From IMG/VR virus record IMGVR_UViG_2734482565_000006: 38,835 nt of DNA; one strand, given 5' to 3'. This document shows positions 2,548 through 38,835 of the stretch, one piece after another. How positions within the stretch are numbered: the first letter of the stretch is position 1; each line of letters opens with the position of its first letter. The translations under genes were made by a program, and so were the position numbers. A model generated the notes under the pieces. The model saw only the letters and a program-made list of their open reading frames with translations, had not been told where the DNA came from and made no database searches. Origin of the DNA: a virus. Its lineage: Duplodnaviria; Heunggongvirae; Uroviricota; Caudoviricetes.

Positions 2548-4602
2548 TTACGCGTTATTCACTTCCACCACGATACTGTCAATCAGTACCGGGTAAGTCG
2601 CATTTTTAGTGATATCGGTCACGCGCAACTTGTCTGCCGTAAACGTGCCGACCGGAGACTGCGACAGCATGAATGGTGTCCCGTCCTTACCATCAATGAC
2701 CGGCGTCACCTCAATACTGTTGTTACCGGCAAAACGGAAGCCCAGCGTATGCCATTCGTTATTAAATGCGCCGAATGACCCCAGCTTCGTGTTCTGCGCC
2801 GTGTTTCCTTTGTGATACATCACGTTAAGGTCTGTGGCATCGCTCTGTACGTAGAACGATGCCAGCAGGTTATGACCGGCATTTCCTTCCAGAGTAACCC
2901 CTTGCGGCAGGGCAGAAACCGGCCAGTACAGCGCCAGTGCGTACTGATTAGCCGTAAGCGCGCCATCGAGTTTAAAACGACAACTGACAAGACCACCTTT
3001 ACCCAGCAGGTCCGCACCATTACCAGCATCATGCTCAAGGTACCAGGGGGCTCTTCCTGTTTCCTTGGTCAGTTTCATTGCCTTACCCCCGCTGGCTCCG
3101 GCATCATCCACGATTTGAGCCTTGCCACCTCCGGCAGCCCAACCCTGTGGTGTCAACCGTCCTTCAGACTCAGATGCCCGGTAAGCAAATAGCGTACTCA
3201 TCGTCGTGGTGTCTGCGGGTGGCGTGGACGGTTTTGATGGTGTATCAGGTGACGGCTTCTCATCCGGTGGTGTCACGGTCTGCCCACGCATCAGTTCAGC
3301 CGTGCGCCCTGCATGGAGCATAATAGCTGAGGCCAGACGGTCTGAAATGACGCCCCTGCGTGCCCATGAGCTGAAATGGCTGTCACGCTGTGTCGAAACA
3401 AAACTGCCCTGGGTTCGGGATGCTGCACCGTAATACCCGACAGCCACAATATCCGGGTCTTCCGCCGGAGCATTCGTTGGCGTGCTCTGTCCATTCTCAT
3501 CCGTCAGGAACGGTACAAAGAAAATTTTCTGTGCTTCCTTGCCTTTGTAGCCACCGTATACTGCCTCATATTTATCGGTGCCAGCGTTTTTCCAGTAATA
3601 CGTGGTATCACCGCAAATCCACGGCACCGTGGTGGCATTTCCACTCACGCACTGCGCAGCAAGCGGAGCCAGGTCAGTTCTGAACTGCTGAACCATGGCC
3701 GTGAATAAACTATTATGCTGCTGGCTTCCTGAGGCAAGGTCTGCCTCTCCCTGCATCCAGACCACAGCCAGAAGTTTGTTTTTCGGGTTTTTCGCCAGCG
3801 CGACTTTGGTGCGGCTTACCAGGTCCTGATACAGAGGTTTACCGGCCCCCCAGCGTGAAGAATCAGCGGAAGCACCGCTGGCCTCACTGAATGAGCCGTC
3901 GGCTCCAGTGGTGAATGCTGACCCGCCACGACAACAGGGCACCAGAAGTATCCCGGCATTCTGTGGGATATAGGGAAGCAGTTTTTTGGCAATATGCAAC
4001 CCCTGACCGACAGTCCCGTACTGGCCTTTTGCCAGATCAGCTTTCGGGTGGTTTATCCCGCTCATATCCTGAACATCATGCAGGCAGTGGTCTGCCGGAA
4101 TGATGTCGTTGTATGTACACGACGTACCGTTGGGCGTTACCGTACTGCGGCGTGCCAGTTGCTTAATGCGTGGGTCCGGGCGGTCAAACGAATCCGGTAA
4201 CGGCAGCCCCTCGCCGTAGGCCATGCCATTTGACTGACCCGCGAGAATGACAACAAAGTAATATTCCGGCTCTGAACTGCTGCCATTCGTGCTACCGGAA
4301 GGCCCGGCGTTATCCGGTGCATTCCAGTCGGAGGGCGTGAGCGTTCCGGCCACGTCAGATGTGATTGGAATGATGCCAGTCACGCCTGAACTGGTGATTT
4401 CTGCACTGGGATTACCGGATACCGGCATTACCCATAATGGCTCTTTCGTGCTGAAGCGGATCACGCAGTCTGCGAAGGTGATCCCCCCTTTATTACCCGA
4501 AGGGCGGAAAGGGCTTTCAATAAATGCCACCGTGCCACCGGCAACCTTGACTGAAAACTCTCCGGGCATGGCGGAGAGCATTTTCCACTTGGAGTCTGAC
4601 AT
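2548..4602 (-). CDS. SGNH-hydrolase / sialate-O-acetylesterase-like protein (prophage NanS-p-like) with C-terminal putative carbohydrate-binding domain
   Basis: 684 aa. A central block YFVVILAGQSNGMAYGEG ... VVWMQGEAD resembles the GQSN and QGE(A/S) motifs of SASA/DUF303 esterases. It sits as cargo between gin and com-mom; the SD is weak. Confidence 0.65.
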   Translation of the reverse strand: MSDSKWKMLSAMPGEFSVKVAGGTVAFIESPFRPSGNKGGITFADCVIRFSTKEPLWVMPVSGNPSAEITSSGVTGIIPITSDVAGTLTPSDWNAPDNAGPSGSTNGSSSEPEYYFVVILAGQSNGMAYGEGLPLPDSFDRPDPRIKQLARRSTVTPNGTSCTYNDIIPADHCLHDVQDMSGINHPKADLAKGQYGTVGQGLHIAKKLLPYIPQNAGILLVPCCRGGSAFTTGADGSFSEASGASADSSRWGAGKPLYQDLVSRTKVALAKNPKNKLLAVVWMQGEADLASGSQQHNSLFTAMVQQFRTDLAPLAAQCVSGNATTVPWICGDTTYYWKNAGTDKYEAVYGGYKGKEAQKIFFVPFLTDENGQSTPTNAPAEDPDIVAVGYYGAASRTQGSFVSTQRDSHFSSWARRGVISDRLASAIMLHAGRTAELMRGQTVTPPDEKPSPDTPSKPSTPPADTTTMSTLFAYRASESEGRLTPQGWAAGGGKAQIVDDAGASGGKAMKLTKETGRAPWYLEHDAGNGADLLGKGGLVSCRFKLDGALTANQYALALYWPVSALPQGVTLEGNAGHNLLASFYVQSDATDLNVMYHKGNTAQNTKLGSFGAFNNEWHTLGFRFAGNNSIEVTPVIDGKDGTPFMLSQSPVGTFTADKLRVTDITKNATYPVLIDSIVVEVNNA

Positions 4603-34232: not shown

Positions 34233-34460
34233 TTAGCTGACTTGTTTCGCACCAACAGAACGGCATATTCCGCTGTAAACTTCTGTCGCACCTTCGCGAT
34301 CAAGTCCGGCAGATATCACCATTCGTGTGCGGTCATTAAATTCAAAAAGTAAATCGCCACATTCTTTATTTTCGGCCAGTGAAATCACCTTCACGTTATC
34401 GAAATTAACCAGGTAAAAGCGTCCGTAAATATCAGGAATATTAAATACCGCCATAATCAC
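34233..34460 (-). CDS. hypothetical protein
   Basis: 75-aa ORF immediately downstream of B with a 4-bp overlap. Confidence 0.45.
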   Translation of the reverse strand: MIMAVFNIPDIYGRFYLVNFDNVKVISLAENKECGDLLFEFNDRTRMVISAGLDREGATEVYSGICRSVGAKQVS

Positions 34461-35398
34461 ACCTGTGAGAGTAATTCAGGGTTGGTATAAACCTCTTTAA
34501 AGGCCGCATTAATATGTTTTTCTGTCAGCGCCGCGCCTTCACCGCTGGCGGTGAGCCACGCCTGGTTAAGCGTATGTGTCAGAACGCGTAACGCTCCCGG
34601 CTTTTCAGCGATAGCCTGCATGACGGCCAGCTCGGCCTCACCACTGATCCCCCACGCCATGGCAATGGCCAGCACATCCGCCTTTTTGGCCTTGCGAAGT
34701 TGTTTTGTACGGGCAAGACGGCTGAACAGGCGCGATAAATCATCAAAGGCGCGGCGTCCACCTTTAAACAATCCGCGCGGGTTACCAATAAGCACCATCC
34801 CGATCCCCGTGGCGTCCTGAATTGCCCGGAGTTGCTCCAGACCGTCAATACCAAGATGATCCGCCTCATCCACAATCACCAGTCCACGCGTTCCCATCAG
34901 GCGACGGCGGATGGCGCGGGATAATGCCCCTTTGTTCGCGCGGGTGTAATCAATCCCCAGCGCATCGGCCAGCTCCAGCAGACACTCCGTGACGCTGGAG
35001 TGCGCGGGTGACAGGGTGATCATCCAGGTGTTTGGTTGCTCCTGGCAGTAATTACGGGCAGTGGCCGTTTTACCCACACCCGGTACGCCCACAATAACGT
35101 TAATACAGCCCATCAGGCGAACCGCCTGAAACAGTGCGCGCAGCTCCTGGACTGTCTGAGTTTCCACAAACTGCGGCGGTTCCGGCAGTGCGCTTTGTTT
35201 ATTCCAGTTCTCATACCAGGAGCGCAGGGAAGCAGCCACAGCAGCGTTATCGCCTTTATATTTTCCCTTACGGAAAGCCGATAATGTGCCGTCGGAAATT
35301 CCCGCCTCTCTGGCGATGGCATACTGCGTCAGTACGCCGCCATCAATAAGTTCATCAATGGTCTTGATTACATCGTTAATATCGGTCATATTATTCAC
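34457..35398 (-). CDS. B: transposition protein B (AAA+ ATPase target-DNA activator)
   Basis: 313 aa; Walker A VGVPGVGKT, Walker B-like LVIVDEADHL; N-terminal HTH; immediately downstream of the transposase. Confidence 0.9.
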   Translation of the reverse strand: MNNMTDINDVIKTIDELIDGGVLTQYAIAREAGISDGTLSAFRKGKYKGDNAAVAASLRSWYENWNKQSALPEPPQFVETQTVQELRALFQAVRLMGCINVIVGVPGVGKTATARNYCQEQPNTWMITLSPAHSSVTECLLELADALGIDYTRANKGALSRAIRRRLMGTRGLVIVDEADHLGIDGLEQLRAIQDATGIGMVLIGNPRGLFKGGRRAFDDLSRLFSRLARTKQLRKAKKADVLAIAMAWGISGEAELAVMQAIAEKPGALRVLTHTLNQAWLTASGEGAALTEKHINAAFKEVYTNPELLSQV

Positions 35399-35471: not shown

Positions 35472-37559
35472 TCAGGCCAGCGGATCACTTTCTTTTAATT
35501 TCGCTTCGAGCAGTTGCAATCCCCGCTGGAAATTACGCTCGTATTCTTCATCAGGTTCATCGTCAGCGACCGGTTGCTGAACGGTCACCGTATTACCCAC
35601 AGGGCGGTATATGTTTTCCAGCCAGGGCTCCTGCGGCTTGTGCTCCAGCACGTTGACAACCTCATCCTCGGCATCACGGATTTTTTCCTCTGCGCGTTTA
35701 CGCATGCCTTTAAGGCGCTGCTGCTGTTTGTAGTATTCCGCGCTGACAGGGAAGGCTTCGCGTTTATTGCCGTCCCATACCGCCTCGCAAATCACGCTGC
35801 CATCCGGGCGGCGCACGGTAATTCGTTCGGCATCATGAATGTCATAGCTGATAAGTACCTTACGGCCATGCTCGTCACGCAGCTCGGGCGCGTAGTAAAT
35901 ATTATTCAGCCAGCGTATTTCACAGCGTCTTACAGGGCGCTCCACCATCGGCCGGAACATATCCCGCAGTTCAACATCGGACAGCCATTCAATTTCCGTG
36001 TCCTCTTCCGCCAGGCGTTTTTTTCTGAACTCCGCCGGGCTGTAATGTTTACCGTTCGGCTTCATGGGTAATTCATCGTGCGGCCGGTTGTTGTACCACT
36101 CAACACCGTCACGAATGGCATCAATCAGTTCAGACCAGGACGGTAAATCACGCATCGCTGACTGCTGCCGGGCGTTCAGCCGTTTGCCCTGTTGCAGGGC
36201 ACTGAATGCCGAGCGTAAATCGCGGTTGGTTTTACGTAACGTCTCGCGATCTGCTCCTTTCCCGAAATAGGTGCGGTATTTACGGGCTATGCGCATCGGT
36301 AATGTGCGGTTAAGCCGTTCGATAATGCCCCGTCCCTGCGGATTACCGGCAATCCCTGTCGGGTGATTAATCCCCAGTCGTGGCAGTATCCCCACAATCT
36401 CCTTATCCAGGACGTCGGCGGTTTCCCCGGAGCCATTATCCGAGTAATACAGAAACGGTTTGCCATGATGGCGAATACCGTGCTGTATGGCACCGGCTAC
36501 GGCGAAAACATTTTCAGCCAGGTCAAGGCTCCAGCCCACCACAAAGCGCGTGCCACCGTCGATAACAAAGGTCACTTCCGGTGCGAATGGCCGCCCGTGA
36601 ACCGGGTGCGCGCATTTCAGCTTCATGCCGTGACCGTCACCAATCCAGACATAATTCACCGGCATTCTGGACCAGTCGCGGCGCGTGAATCCCTCAAGCT
36701 GACGGTATTCACTGCCAGTTACCCGGCCTTTTTGTTTCACCACTTCCGGCAGTTTCTTCATTGCGCGGCGAATGGTGTCATAAGAGGGCATGATATCGAG
36801 CATATAAGGCTCATCAGCGTGCCGGTGCTGCCATTCAGCAACAAAATCCTCGTAAGCCTCGGTCATTGGTCGGCCGTTTGACTGGCGATACTGCGCCAGA
36901 AATTCGGGCAGCCAGTTAATATCTTCGGCTTTTATTTCCTGGCGTTTACCCGGTGCCAGTAAAAGCAGGCGTTCAGCGGCGTTCTGTGCCTTGTTAAAGG
37001 CCGCAATCCAGCGTTTCAGCGTGATTTCACTCAACGCGCGGCTGTTTCCCTTTTTGGCGTTCGCCGTCTCAACCATTGCCACAATGCGCTCGTCCAGTTG
37101 TGATCGTGCCAGGCTGTTAACGAGGAACCGGATAGCTTTAGCGCAGCTGAAACCGGGTTGTTGCGTGAATTTCAGCACCTCACTGACGATCGCAATGCGT
37201 GCGTCTGCCACCTGGCGCTGGTTTTCAGTCAGGGCATTGAGGCGTTCGACCATCAGTTGTGGTGATCCGCGATATGCCTCCACCGCATCAACCACGGCAG
37301 ACGAGCGTCTGGCCTTTGTCACCACCGGAGCCGGTGATTCATCGGCTTTTTGCGTCATCAGTTGCAGGGCATAACGTTCGCGTAATGCCTGCTGTGTCAC
37401 TTCAGGTAAACAGTCAATGCTGTATTCAAAACCTTTAGCGCCTTTCTTGCGGCGTCTGCTGGTTTCGCTGGTTGCATACTTCCTGATTGAATAGCGAACG
37501 CCTTGCTCCGTTCCCGGCATCCCCGGTAATCCAACCAGTTCTTTAACTGAAGCAAACAT
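35472..37559 (-). CDS. A: DDE transposase A (MuA-like)
   Basis: 695 aa; N-terminal Mu-type DNA-binding domain (LVGLPGMPGTEQGVRYSIRK...KKGAKGFEYSIDCLPE); follows ner by 3 bp. Confidence 0.95.
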   Translation of the reverse strand: MFASVKELVGLPGMPGTEQGVRYSIRKYATSETSRRRKKGAKGFEYSIDCLPEVTQQALRERYALQLMTQKADESPAPVVTKARRSSAVVDAVEAYRGSPQLMVERLNALTENQRQVADARIAIVSEVLKFTQQPGFSCAKAIRFLVNSLARSQLDERIVAMVETANAKKGNSRALSEITLKRWIAAFNKAQNAAERLLLLAPGKRQEIKAEDINWLPEFLAQYRQSNGRPMTEAYEDFVAEWQHRHADEPYMLDIMPSYDTIRRAMKKLPEVVKQKGRVTGSEYRQLEGFTRRDWSRMPVNYVWIGDGHGMKLKCAHPVHGRPFAPEVTFVIDGGTRFVVGWSLDLAENVFAVAGAIQHGIRHHGKPFLYYSDNGSGETADVLDKEIVGILPRLGINHPTGIAGNPQGRGIIERLNRTLPMRIARKYRTYFGKGADRETLRKTNRDLRSAFSALQQGKRLNARQQSAMRDLPSWSELIDAIRDGVEWYNNRPHDELPMKPNGKHYSPAEFRKKRLAEEDTEIEWLSDVELRDMFRPMVERPVRRCEIRWLNNIYYAPELRDEHGRKVLISYDIHDAERITVRRPDGSVICEAVWDGNKREAFPVSAEYYKQQQRLKGMRKRAEEKIRDAEDEVVNVLEHKPQEPWLENIYRPVGNTVTVQQPVADDEPDEEYERNFQRGLQLLEAKLKESDPLA

Positions 37560-37561
37560 AA

Positions 37562-37792
37562 TTACGCGACCTTACGAATGTAGCGGCTGGGCCAAATCTC
37601 CTCGGGCGGCACCCCCAGGCATTCCGCGATAATCCCCTCATACTTGGGAACATGGCGGTATACCGCGTTGTACAGATTGTTCTGACCCACGCCAGCTTTA
37701 CGGGCCAGCGCCCTCATGCTTCCTTCTCTGGCTCTGACTTCCCCCAAAATTCTTTGAGGATGCCAATCAGGCTTAACTTCATTTCTCGCCAT
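37562..37792 (-). CDS. ner: Ner-like DNA-binding regulator
   Basis: 76 aa; DWHPQRILGEVRAREGSMRALARKAGVGQNNLYNAV...EEIWPSRY matches the Mu Ner pattern (DWHRADVIAGLKKRKLSLSALSRQFGYAPTTLANAL...EVIWPSRY). Confidence 0.85.
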   Translation of the reverse strand: MARNEVKPDWHPQRILGEVRAREGSMRALARKAGVGQNNLYNAVYRHVPKYEGIIAECLGVPPEEIWPSRYIRKVA

Positions 37793-37977
37793 GATTCATC
37801 TATCCTAAAAAGTTACGAAATTTGATAACTAAACTTAGTTATCAAGTTTGATATAAGTATTGATCCACTTCTGCTTCATGTAAAGCAAAAAAAACATCTT
37901 TCTTTTGTCTATTGTGGATCAATGGTTGCTGACAACACTAAAAGTTAATAATTTCAAATTGATAGGAAGAAAAGAAA
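37793..37977. promoter_or_regulatory. divergent early/repressor promoter-operator region
   Basis: AT-rich 185-bp gap between ner (-) and the repressor (+). Perfect palindrome TTGATAACTAA-ac-TTAGTTATCAA at 37822..37845; inverted repeat ATTGATCCAC (37859..37868) / GTGGATCAAT (37914..37923). Confidence 0.5.
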
Positions 37978-38523
37978 ATGAACAAGCAAACAACAACATC
38001 TCTTTCTTTTCCTGGTGGTAGAAAAGAAAGCATTGCTGAGCGTCTGAAAAGGCTGATTGGCTCCCGCAGCGTCAGAGCTGCAGCAAGAGATTGGGGGCTT
38101 TCATTTTCAACACTAAACAATTATCTGTCTCGTGGCACTGAGCCATCCTTAAGTGTCGCCCTTCAGATTGCGTCTATCGAAGGAGTAAGTGTTGAGTGGC
38201 TATGTGGATTCAGTGATGCATCACAAGTGAATCGGTGTGAGATCAAGGAAAATCAAGATGAAAGCAAGAAGATAATTATGACGATTATCAGCGCACTTGA
38301 TGAAAAAGACTTAGAGCAGCTATCGAAAAATTTGGTTCTGAATGGAGCCAAGTACTTAGCTCGGTTGTTAGAGCCTGAAAATCAAGATCTAATCCGCTTA
38401 GAAGGAAGGAAAAGAATAGCTGCATTACAGCTTGAAGGTATGTCTGACGAACGCGTCAGAGAGATTTTGGAAGAAACTGAGAGAAGTCGCAAATCTAACG
38501 CGGTAGAACCAAAAGCGGGTTAA
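37978..38523 (+). CDS. prophage repressor (XRE/CI-type HTH, no peptidase domain)
   Basis: 181 aa, divergent from ner-A-B next to attL. N-terminal RDWGLSFSTLNNYLSRGTEPSLSVALQIASIEGVSVEWL has an XRE-family HTH pattern; it lacks the MuA-like motif. Confidence 0.65.
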   Translation: MNKQTTTSLSFPGGRKESIAERLKRLIGSRSVRAAARDWGLSFSTLNNYLSRGTEPSLSVALQIASIEGVSVEWLCGFSDASQVNRCEIKENQDESKKIIMTIISALDEKDLEQLSKNLVLNGAKYLARLLEPENQDLIRLEGRKRIAALQLEGMSDERVREILEETERSRKSNAVEPKAG

Positions 38524-38597: not shown

Positions 38598-38752
38598 GTA
38601 TCAAATGAGTTGCCGATTTTATAATAAATGACTAATTATTGCACAATCGGTATCAAATAGACCTTATCCGCACATCTAGCCATCACCTGTTTTATTTCAG
38701 TATCTTACAGGTGATTTCACCTCCTTTCACTAAACCCCTTGTCGGTATCAAA
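38598..38752. repeat. attL-side array of three dispersed putative transposase-binding repeats (reverse complement of TTTGATACCGA)
   Basis: AGTATCAAA 38598..38606, CGGTATCAAA 38648..38657, TCGGTATCAAA 38742..38752. The wide spacing (51 and 95 bp) contrasts with the contiguous sites at the other end. Confidence 0.55.
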
Positions 38753-38756
38753 TGAT

Positions 38757-38835
38757 TCACCTGGTTATATGTCGCCAGTCGATACCTTCCAGCAGCATCG
38801 CCAGCTGCGCCTGTGTAAGGAACACTTTGCCATCA
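38757..38835 (-). CDS. interrupted host gene, 5' portion, now terminating inside the prophage end
   Basis: Minus-strand frame ...DGKVFLTQAQLAMLL (host, 38835..38792) continues as EGIDWRHITR and stops at TGA 38757..38759 inside the prophage; the original C-terminus TSLTML is at 153..180. Confidence 0.4.
   Translation of the reverse strand, partial: DGKVFLTQAQLAMLLEGIDWRHITR

Follow-up and report, generated by a model that had tools for sequence, protein, structure and literature searches.

We analyzed the region that controls lysis and lysogeny in an apparently intact Mu-like Escherichia coli prophage; the region forms the left end of that prophage within a viral DNA stretch of 38,835 nucleotides (IMG/VR record IMGVR_UViG_2734482565_000006; this whole stretch is called the window here). 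Profile comparisons identify its lysogeny repressor as a hybrid relative to the Mu repressor (Mu c), with an XRE/lambda CI-type head on a C-terminal domain and tail homologous to those of Mu c. By these comparisons, the DNA-binding head alone differs from Mu c. We think it probable that this hybrid repressor works alongside three separable sets of sites in the control DNA, which would be read by Ner, the repressor, and the transposase, respectively. The repressor gene c is transcribed rightwards, and the early operon ner-A-B is transcribed leftwards from a predicted early promoter, Pe.

37978 to 38523, + strand: lysogeny repressor gene c, an open reading frame (ORF) of 181 amino acids (phrog_3037, "transcriptional repressor," E 4.5e-60)
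37793 to 37977: intergenic region between ner and c, 185 bp
37562 to 37792, - strand: Ner-type regulator of 76 amino acids, with which the early operon begins (HTH_35, 77 bits; cutoff, 25; phrog_769)
35472 to 37559, - strand: Mu-family transposase A, an ORF of 695 amino acids (phrog_310, "transposase," E 1.5e-211)

Three parts were recognized in the repressor.

38026 to 38208, + strand: XRE/CI-type five-helix helix-turn-helix (HTH) domain, residues 17 to 77 (HTH_3, Phage_CI_repr, family profile, AF2 model, and Foldseek)
38263 to 38505, + strand: Mu c-type C-terminal helical domain, residues 96 to 176 (hhalign and PHROG)
38506 to 38520, + strand: C-terminal tail EPKAG, which belongs to the K-K-A-G/V/S motif

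A first-pass annotation of this DNA had described the repressor head as XRE-like, and we found the same. In Pfam, the head scored near but below the cutoffs of HTH_3 (21.8 bits; cutoff, 23) and Phage_CI_repr (17.1 bits; cutoff, 22; E 0.007). The relative from Yersinia phage vB_YpM_5 exceeds both cutoffs (26.6 and 27.4 bits), and many clusters of the family carry precomputed PF01381/PF07022 matches. When a profile of 57 family sequences was searched against the PDB, only XRE/CI chains were matched. The AlphaFold model of the repressor (mean pLDDT, 74.6; 84 to 89 over head residues 20 to 70) places head helices at residues 19 to 27, 32 to 39, 43 to 51, 58 to 68, and 72 to 75. We found that the modeled head superposes on P22 c2, ImmR, SinR, and 434 at 1.5 to 2 Å (Foldseek; P22 c2, root mean square deviation of 1.5 Å over 62 columns; ImmR, TM 0.80). 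The AF2 model, Foldseek, and the family profile thus all give the five-helix fold with the HTH at helices 2 and 3 that is typical of XRE proteins. Across the repressor family, the recognition helix (STLNNY) hardly varies. NCBIfam has no specific model for this protein; the best was a weak RstR match (25 bits against a cutoff of 80).

The head also lacks the N-terminal PF02316 winged helix that Mu c-family repressors share with the I-alpha domain of MuA. There was no PF02316 match at E≤1 in Pfam, the family profile gave no match to 1G4D, 1TNS, or 1QPM in the PDB, and a profile-profile alignment (hhalign) of the repressor N terminus with that of Mu c reached a probability of 0.3%. These results, together with the modeled similarity to P22 c2, 434, and SinR, leave almost no room for the idea that the head is a cryptic, diverged Mu winged helix in a classical Mu arrangement, for which we found no support. 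The first-pass annotation had named a placement of the repressor N terminus in the Mu DNA-binding family as the result that would refute its reading, and the searches did not give that result.

We found no Peptidase_S24 match in the repressor at E≤1 in Pfam, and its C terminus is all-helical in the model. It therefore lacks the C-terminal S24 autocleavage domain of lambda CI/LexA-type proteins, which the repressors of D3112, Shewanella MuM16-1, and Vibrio 1.028.O do match when scanned identically. The first-pass annotation was right that an autopeptidase is missing but took this as a departure from Mu, which it is not: Mu c has none either, and its C-terminal domain is homologous to that of the window repressor. 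Aligning the repressor subfamily with Mu c by hhalign gave a probability of 87% at full length (E 4e-6; 80 columns) and 94.2% with the C-terminal halves only (E 1.2e-7; 79 columns), while the controls gave 0.2% (reversed sequence) and 0.2 to 0.3% (N versus C). Consistently with this, the two proteins find each other's PHROG families through their C-terminal halves: window repressor residues 94 to 178 match phrog_7148 (E 1.2e-4), and Mu c residues 69 to 163 match phrog_3037 (E 8.5e-5). BLASTP of the repressor against Mu c found nothing significant, and the C-terminal homology is visible to profile methods only. The tails also agree. By pattern count, 40 of 57 family members end in a (K/R/Q)-x-A-(G/S/V/A)-type tail, and all 10 Mu c family members (10/10) end in KKAV, KKAS, or SKAG. 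The repressor thus has the C-terminal helical domain and KKA-type tail of the Mu c family.

These features bear on induction. We take prophage Sp18 of O157 Sakai to belong to this prophage group, and O157:H7 genomes carry a related (L2-type) prophage. Mitomycin C was reported not to induce Sp18 (PMC2669165), which would agree with a repressor lacking S24. ClpXP degrades Mu c by way of a determinant at the C terminus (PMC10584840, which cites Laachouch 1996 and Defenbaugh and Nakai 2003). By analogy, the window repressor would be controlled by ClpXP-type proteolysis and not by RecA-stimulated/SOS self-cleavage. By homology, it may also oligomerize through the C-terminal domain.

The transposase keeps a Mu-type N-terminal domain, as the first-pass annotation had proposed.

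37374 to 37556, - strand: I-alpha-type winged-helix domain of the transposase, residues 2 to 62 (phmmer against the PDB)

We found that residues 2 to 62 match two PDB entries: 1TNS, the solved MuA I-alpha domain (E 3.6e-7), and 1G4D, the DNA-binding domain of the Mu repressor (E 1e-3). HTH_Tnp_Mu_1 (PF02316) matches residues 6 to 141 with 35.7 bits (cutoff, 23.3), and residues 13 to 52 match Mu c in BLASTP (E 6e-5). By sequence, then, the protein has the enhancer-binding I-alpha domain of the MuA family. It also has the Mu-transpos_C domain (63.3 bits) of that family and, by a weak match to the rve-type core (E 0.004 to 0.008), an RNase H-like DDE core. It differs from MuA, to which it is 23% identical, in matching neither the Mu-specific DDE_2 nor the I-gamma model in Pfam. 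Prophages located elsewhere in E. coli chromosomes carry a transposase with 97% identity to this one, and the I-alpha sequence is strongly conserved among transposases only 24 to 58% identical overall. Within I-alpha, the wing (residues 37 to 42; 37434 to 37451) is a spot of local variation among transposases whose remaining sequence is about 97% identical; it reads KKGAKG, QEGSKG, and QKGCKG in three E. coli types, and QEGTKG is also seen. We rejected the idea that the wing co-varies with immunity type, as one related locus (L045) reads QEGTKG despite having a window-type repressor (94% identical). Pfam, PDB profiles, Foldseek, and hhalign together confirm the claim that repressor and transposase use unrelated DNA-binding folds.

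The first-pass annotation had drawn attention to that pairing. Scanning annotated Mu-like phages with Pfam in the same way, we found it in four of them.

D3112: repressor with HTH_3 and Peptidase_S24; transposase with PF02316 (E 7.6e-44)
Shewanella MuM16-1: repressor with XRE/CI head and S24; transposase with PF02316
Vibrio 1.028.O: repressor with XRE/CI head and S24; transposase with PF02316
Yersinia vB_YpM_5: repressor of the same family as that of the window (52% identity over the full length), no S24; transposase with PF02316

Repressors that bear PF02316 are of the Mu type only and form a small family (5.8 billion proteins yielded 24 clusters). Among the Mu-like phages examined, the combination of an XRE-type repressor with an I-alpha transposase thus looks common, with Mu/D108 as the special case. 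Like the window, D3112, MuM16-1, and Vibrio 1.028.O have an XRE/CI head, a PF02316 transposase, and divergent c and ner-A-B; their repressors end in Peptidase_S24, whereas that of the window ends in the Mu c-type domain. The c repressor of D3112 was reportedly characterized by Salmon et al. in 2000. D3112 has no CTTTT array, and four CGGAAC/GTTCCG words are readable in its control region. Phages vB_YpM_5 and vB_YpM_6 (genus Muvirus) share the repressor family and the site array described below with the window, and their transposase is 82% identical; they differ from it in immunity type, Ner type, and operator sequences. All genes in the vB_YpM phage record are annotated as "hypothetical." A literature search found no paper that relates the type of repressor head to the I-alpha domain or the enhancer in Mu-like phages.

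We compared the control region with 37 repressor-family loci from other Enterobacterales and with three further E. coli types (about 40 loci, referred to by L numbers where needed). The repressor family comprises 93 clusters, and nearly all members examined are divergent from ner and a Mu-type transposase; at nearly all loci fetched, ner and an I-alpha transposase stand in this same divergent layout. In three E. coli prophages, Ner is identical and the transposases are 97% identical, but the repressors are mutually only 43 to 52% identical.

The ner-proximal part of the intergenic region contains the following.

37822 to 37845, with extended arms at 37818 to 37849: palindrome TTGATAACTAAACTTAGTTATCAA (inverted repeat I1; 15-nt arms, 93% complementary)
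37856 to 37884, - strand: predicted early promoter Pe (-35 TTTACA at 37884 to 37879; -10 AATACT at 37861 to 37856)

Ner is 45% identical to Mu Ner and 100% identical in prophages with three different repressor types. In those three E. coli immunity types, the palindrome at 37822 to 37845 is nearly invariant (two central bases differ), and alignment showed that the ner-proximal part is conserved and that the middle of the intergenic region is divergent. Wherever the Ner type differs (L046 and L005), the palindrome becomes a different GATAA repeat, whatever the repressor type. L046 combines a window-type repressor and operator with a Ner and a ner-proximal repeat of the vB_YpM_5 type. The palindrome arm, TGATAACTAAGT, contains the core TAACTAAGT, which is a word of the CTAAGT/ACTTAG inverted repeats between Mu c and ner; these repeats are reportedly the Ner footprint described by Tolias and DuBow. 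The palindrome lies just downstream of the predicted Pe -10. The regulator thus has the HTH_35 domain, the first early position, and the co-varying palindrome of the Ner family, and operator function is predicted. We concluded that the palindrome at 37822 to 37845 is most likely the Ner operator.

Pe is the sole sigma-70-like match between 37500 and 38835. Both of its hexamers lie within family-conserved blocks, AGTATTGATCCA and ATGTAAAGCAAAA, that are among the most conserved. A GATC (Dam) site (37862 to 37865) abuts the predicted -10 inside block AGTATTGATCCA, and 24 of the 28 related loci have ATTGATC. A possibility is that early transcription is methylation sensitive, as in IS10 and Tn5.

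The arms of a second palindrome, ATTGATCCAC (37859 to 37868) and GTGGATCAAT (37914 to 37923), match at 10/10 positions (inverted repeat I3). It supplies the candidate repressor operators.

37861 to 37878: OA, TGATCCAC-TT-CTGCTTCA, an imperfect 8-2-8 palindrome in the Pe spacer; putative main repressor operator
37914 to 37923: OB, GTGGATCAAT, an inverted copy of the OA left arm; putative second repressor half-site (37914 to 37921)
Candidate repressor-dimer target DNA: TGATCCACTTGTGGATCA

Palindromes of the 8-2-8 form are of the kind bound by XRE dimers. We found that the OA right arm is closer to ideal in relatives with window-type repressors: it is GTGATTCA in L045 and GTGGGTCA (7/8) in L046, so that OA of L046 reads TGATCCAC-TT-GTGGGTCA, a near-perfect 8-2-8 palindrome. 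In L046, the OA site follows the repressor type although the Ner type differs. L045 and L046, both with window-type repressors, retain GTGGATCA (37914 to 37921), and L002 and L003 lack it. A TGATC...GATCA repeat is kept at the place of OA in transposase-less remnants that retain the repressor. The centers of OA and OB are 43 bp apart, or about four helical turns. The TGATCCAC-type repeat arms thus track repressor type and bracket the early promoter, and from this we infer that they are repressor operators. We rejected the view that the 37859 to 37923 repeat is private to the window, as its left arm falls in the family-wide ATTGATC block; type specificity is limited to the exact sequence of the arm and to the second copy. 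The first-pass annotation had put forward both palindromes as candidate operators for repressor and transposase. Both are real, and the arms at 37859 to 37923 do track repressor type, but the palindrome at 37822 to 37845 tracks Ner and not the repressor.

The best candidates for an enhancer are four other sites, which were missing from that annotation. They are listed with a nearby IHF-like site; family positions are counted relative to the HTH codons.

37898 to 37907, + strand: enhancer-like site 1, CTTTCTTTTG, with an exact TTTCTTTT at 37899; family position -208
37952 to 37964, + strand: degenerate IHF-like site TTTCAAATTGATA, 2 mismatches to WATCAANNNNTTR
37969 to 37978, - strand: enhancer-like site 2, TTTTCTTTTC; family position -136
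38002 to 38011, + strand: enhancer-like site 3, CTTTCTTTTC, within repressor codons L-S-F; family position -104
38021 to 38030, - strand: enhancer-like site 4, CTTTCTTTTC, within repressor codons K-E-S; family position -84

The consensus of the array is YTTTCTTTTSY, which resembles the Mu operator word CTTTTY, and the array lies 750 to 870 bp from the left end. Where 1.3 copies of TTTCTTTT would be expected in the window, there are 10, of which 4 fall within 132 bp (simulation P of about 3.5e-5). AAAGAAA/TTTCTTT was the top 7-mer among related loci: it is present in 27 of 28 nonredundant loci with 92 copies and is 38-fold enriched over flanking DNA. The copies are fixed in position and orientation, two in noncoding DNA and two in the F-S-F and K-E-S codons. 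Site 1 is invariant across three immunity types and stands at -208 in most related loci. Site 2 overlaps the ribosome-binding site and ATG of the repressor gene. The DNA of site 3 is invariant although neighboring codons vary between immunity types, and site 4 is present in 19 of 23 loci sampled. A match to WATCAANNNNTTR with at most 1 mismatch is found at a fixed position between sites 1 and 2 in 17 of 21 loci, 8 of them perfect. The window itself has no IHF match within 1 mismatch, and the support there is the family-wide position only.

The array goes with the transposase. Loci with an I-alpha transposase have one to seven copies, mostly three to five. We found zero or one copy in four independent lineages that have an intact STLNNY repressor and no transposase within 3.5 kb. 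Three of these four lineages also keep ner, and the transposase-less lineages retain the ATTGATC block and the inverted repeat at the promoter. The three of them that were included in the alignment lack an IHF-like match at the aligned position. The array thus resembles a Mu-type enhancer (IAS) in wording, position, and co-occurrence with the transposase, and enhancer function is predicted. We concluded that the YTTTCTTTTS array and the IHF-like site are probably the transposition enhancer for I-alpha.

Sites 3 and 4 (38002 to 38030) form a perfect 10-nt inverted repeat of the type CTTTCTTTTC N9 GAAAGAAAAG within the first 18 repressor codons, and this repeat was flagged as an 11-pair stem on the - strand. 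Only lineages with the transposase conserve the F-S-F and K-E-S residues, and this suggests that the N-terminal arm of the repressor is under overlapping selection at the DNA level. A codon-level test of K-E-S (always AAA GAA AGY) was discarded as too weak given codon bias and shared ancestry. MuM16-1 shares the N-terminal arm (KKES..LSF) and AAAGAAAG/CTTTCTTT sites with the window; its recognition helix is different and its repressor ends in S24, and it keeps the array sites and a AAAGAAAGTGCACTTTCTTT palindrome.

The comparison with Mu brings these parts together. Mu/D108 and the window share gene order, divergent promoters, an I-alpha transposase, and a repressor without S24, and Mu also has the homologous Ner with the Ner-site word CTAAGT in common and the homologous repressor C-terminal domain with its KKA-type tail. 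Like the window, Mu has a CTTTT-type array that lies partly in the 5' end of c and is about 0.8 to 0.9 kb away from the left end; an IHF-type site separates the arrays. In Mu, these CTTTTY arrays are O1 and O2, which are the enhancer contacted by I-alpha (PMC3562280), and IHF acts at the Mu operator/enhancer (PMC3820752). Unlike Mu, the window has a repressor with an XRE five-helix HTH instead of the winged helix common to MuA, and it has separate palindromic TGATCCAC-type candidate operators.

According to the model that we favor, Ner would act at the palindrome downstream of Pe. The repressor would bind OA, which fills the Pe spacer, and the OB half-site 43 bp away, and binding would shut Pe. 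I-alpha would bind the four YTTTCTTTTS sites (37898, 37969, 38002, and 38021) as in Mu, and these sites plus the IHF-like site would be the enhancer. The repressor and transposase have no DNA-binding domain in common. A full 18-bp site built on the OB half-site would span 37904 to 37921 and overlap site 1 by 4 nt, and the repressor could therefore still hinder enhancer use by occlusion; a repressor oligomer formed via the Mu c-type domain could cover Pe and site 1 together. The earlier suggestion of two kinds of operator sites is favored by the comparative data, but its companion, that immunity and enhancer binding are uncoupled, is doubtful in its full form.

Several points weigh against this model. 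In Foldseek searches of BFVD and the PDB, Mu c was absent among the top 50 listed matches; the listed matches are almost entirely XRE/HTH-head proteins and are therefore uninformative on the C-terminal domain. Pe matches the consensus at 9 of 12 positions, the OA right arm of the window fits the ideal at 5 of 8, and the IHF-like copy of the window is weak, with its two mismatches. L038 has an I-alpha transposase and one exact array copy only. The transposase-less set amounts to four independent lineages, whose control regions may have decayed or been rewired. Finally, both the STLNNY helix and the YTTTCTTTTS word are nearly invariant, so the repressor could be the reader of the array.

This last point leads to an alternative that we consider unlikely, in which the array consists of the repressor's own operators, read by its XRE head or N-terminal arm, with I-alpha competing or uninvolved and the TGATCCAC repeats serving as promoter elements or host-factor sites. 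Besides the shared invariance, sites 2 to 4 cover the ribosome-binding site and 5' end of the repressor gene, which would be natural for autoregulation, and the Mu repressor itself binds CTTTTY arrays (PMC3562280). Yet the array is reduced to zero or one copy in the four transposase-less lineages whose repressor helix is intact, and it persists in MuM16-1 despite the different recognition helix there. Moreover, no array site overlaps the Pe core, as OA does, and it is OA and OB, not the array, that co-vary with repressor type. We give still less credence to the view that uncoupling is full or that there is no enhancer, so that I-alpha would be vestigial or have another role and the tracts would be translation signals, curvature, or sites for nucleoid proteins. 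The coincidence of site 2 with a ribosome-binding site and the AT richness of the region agree with such a view, and under certain assay conditions MuA can do without I-alpha (PMC3362531). It is hard to square with the strong conservation of I-alpha in such divergent transposases, with sites fixed in position in both orientations and in coding and noncoding DNA, and with the loss of the sites together with the transposase; full uncoupling in particular is opposed by the overlap between the OB-based site and site 1.

We therefore return to the model of a hybrid repressor with separable Ner, repressor, and transposase sites. An extension of it is possible, although we lean slightly against it: throughout this widespread group of enterobacterial Mu-like prophages, the enhancer and operators would be interleaved and read by unrelated domains, the F-S-F and K-E-S residues would be held by the DNA sites and not by the function of the protein, and the Mu repressor would have arisen from a repressor of this family when a copy of I-alpha replaced the XRE head. 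Through that replacement, an operator and enhancer that had been interleaved would have become shared.

The prophage extends from about 190 to 38769 of the window, inside an IS66-family element. The right end of the window is the left end of the prophage; IS66/ISEc8 sequence starts past 38769, and matches to other E. coli prophages and genomes end at that position. Both flanks (1 to 193 and 38770 to 38835) belong to a widespread insertion sequence (IS66/ISEc8 ORF matches), and the Mu-like element has therefore inserted within an insertion sequence. Four bases, tgtc, are duplicated at 190 to 193 and 38770 to 38773; the fifth base is unequal, and thus a clean 5-bp target duplication is not seen. 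The other prophage end lies near 190 with mom adjoining (right end). At least 12 complete E. coli genomes carry the same element beside differing host genes with 99.6 to 99.9% identity over the region, which points to recent transposition.

38598 to 38769: left end (attL), with three GTATCAAAT end sites at 38598, 38650, and 38745; prophage terminus at 38769
34457 to 35398: MuB-like ORF after A; relatives are annotated as AAA ATPase and Phage-MuB_C

On this strand, GTATCAAAT occurs in the whole window only at those three positions, and its complement occurs only at 232 and 267, at the other end, with a variant, TTTGATACCG, at 211. The GTATCAAAT-type repeats at both termini are likely the L1-L3 and R1-R3 end sites of the transposase. 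The element thus has the repeated end sites at both termini and the many insertion sites expected with a MuA-family transposase. The word TTTGATA is also present within the region of the Ner palindrome.

Two further arrangements were seen among the other loci. In L018, L023, and L029 (Citrobacter amalonaticus and Enterobacter spp.; about 3050 to 4030), a ner-like gene and an XRE repressor of the same family are present with no transposase. The pair adjoins an amino-acid permease gene, and this arrangement is kept in three species; it looks like domesticated regulators remaining from a Mu-like prophage. L048 (E. coli, repressor P0034; 3346 to 3560) is a Mu-like prophage with a repressor of a different XRE family. 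By eye, the N terminus of its transposase seems nearer to MuA I-alpha, and its control region has three copies of AACCTGAAAA, the complement of the Mu operator word CTTTTCAG.

We concluded that this is an ordinary Mu-like immunity region, to which our analysis adds the hybrid repressor, the reassignment of a palindrome to Ner, and a three-class map of sites. The pairing of repressor and transposase alone is not news, as it is the common state among the Mu-like phages examined. A repressor that shares the tail of Mu c but not its head suggests an origin for the unusual repressor of Mu. By analogy with Mu c, it also predicts induction of the ClpXP type, not the SOS type, in a large group of prophages of E. 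coli, Salmonella, Yersinia, and Serratia. The operator and enhancer of Mu are genetically inseparable. If the operator and enhancer are separate here, as predicted, these prophages would provide a natural system in which the enhancer could be studied without disturbing repressor binding.

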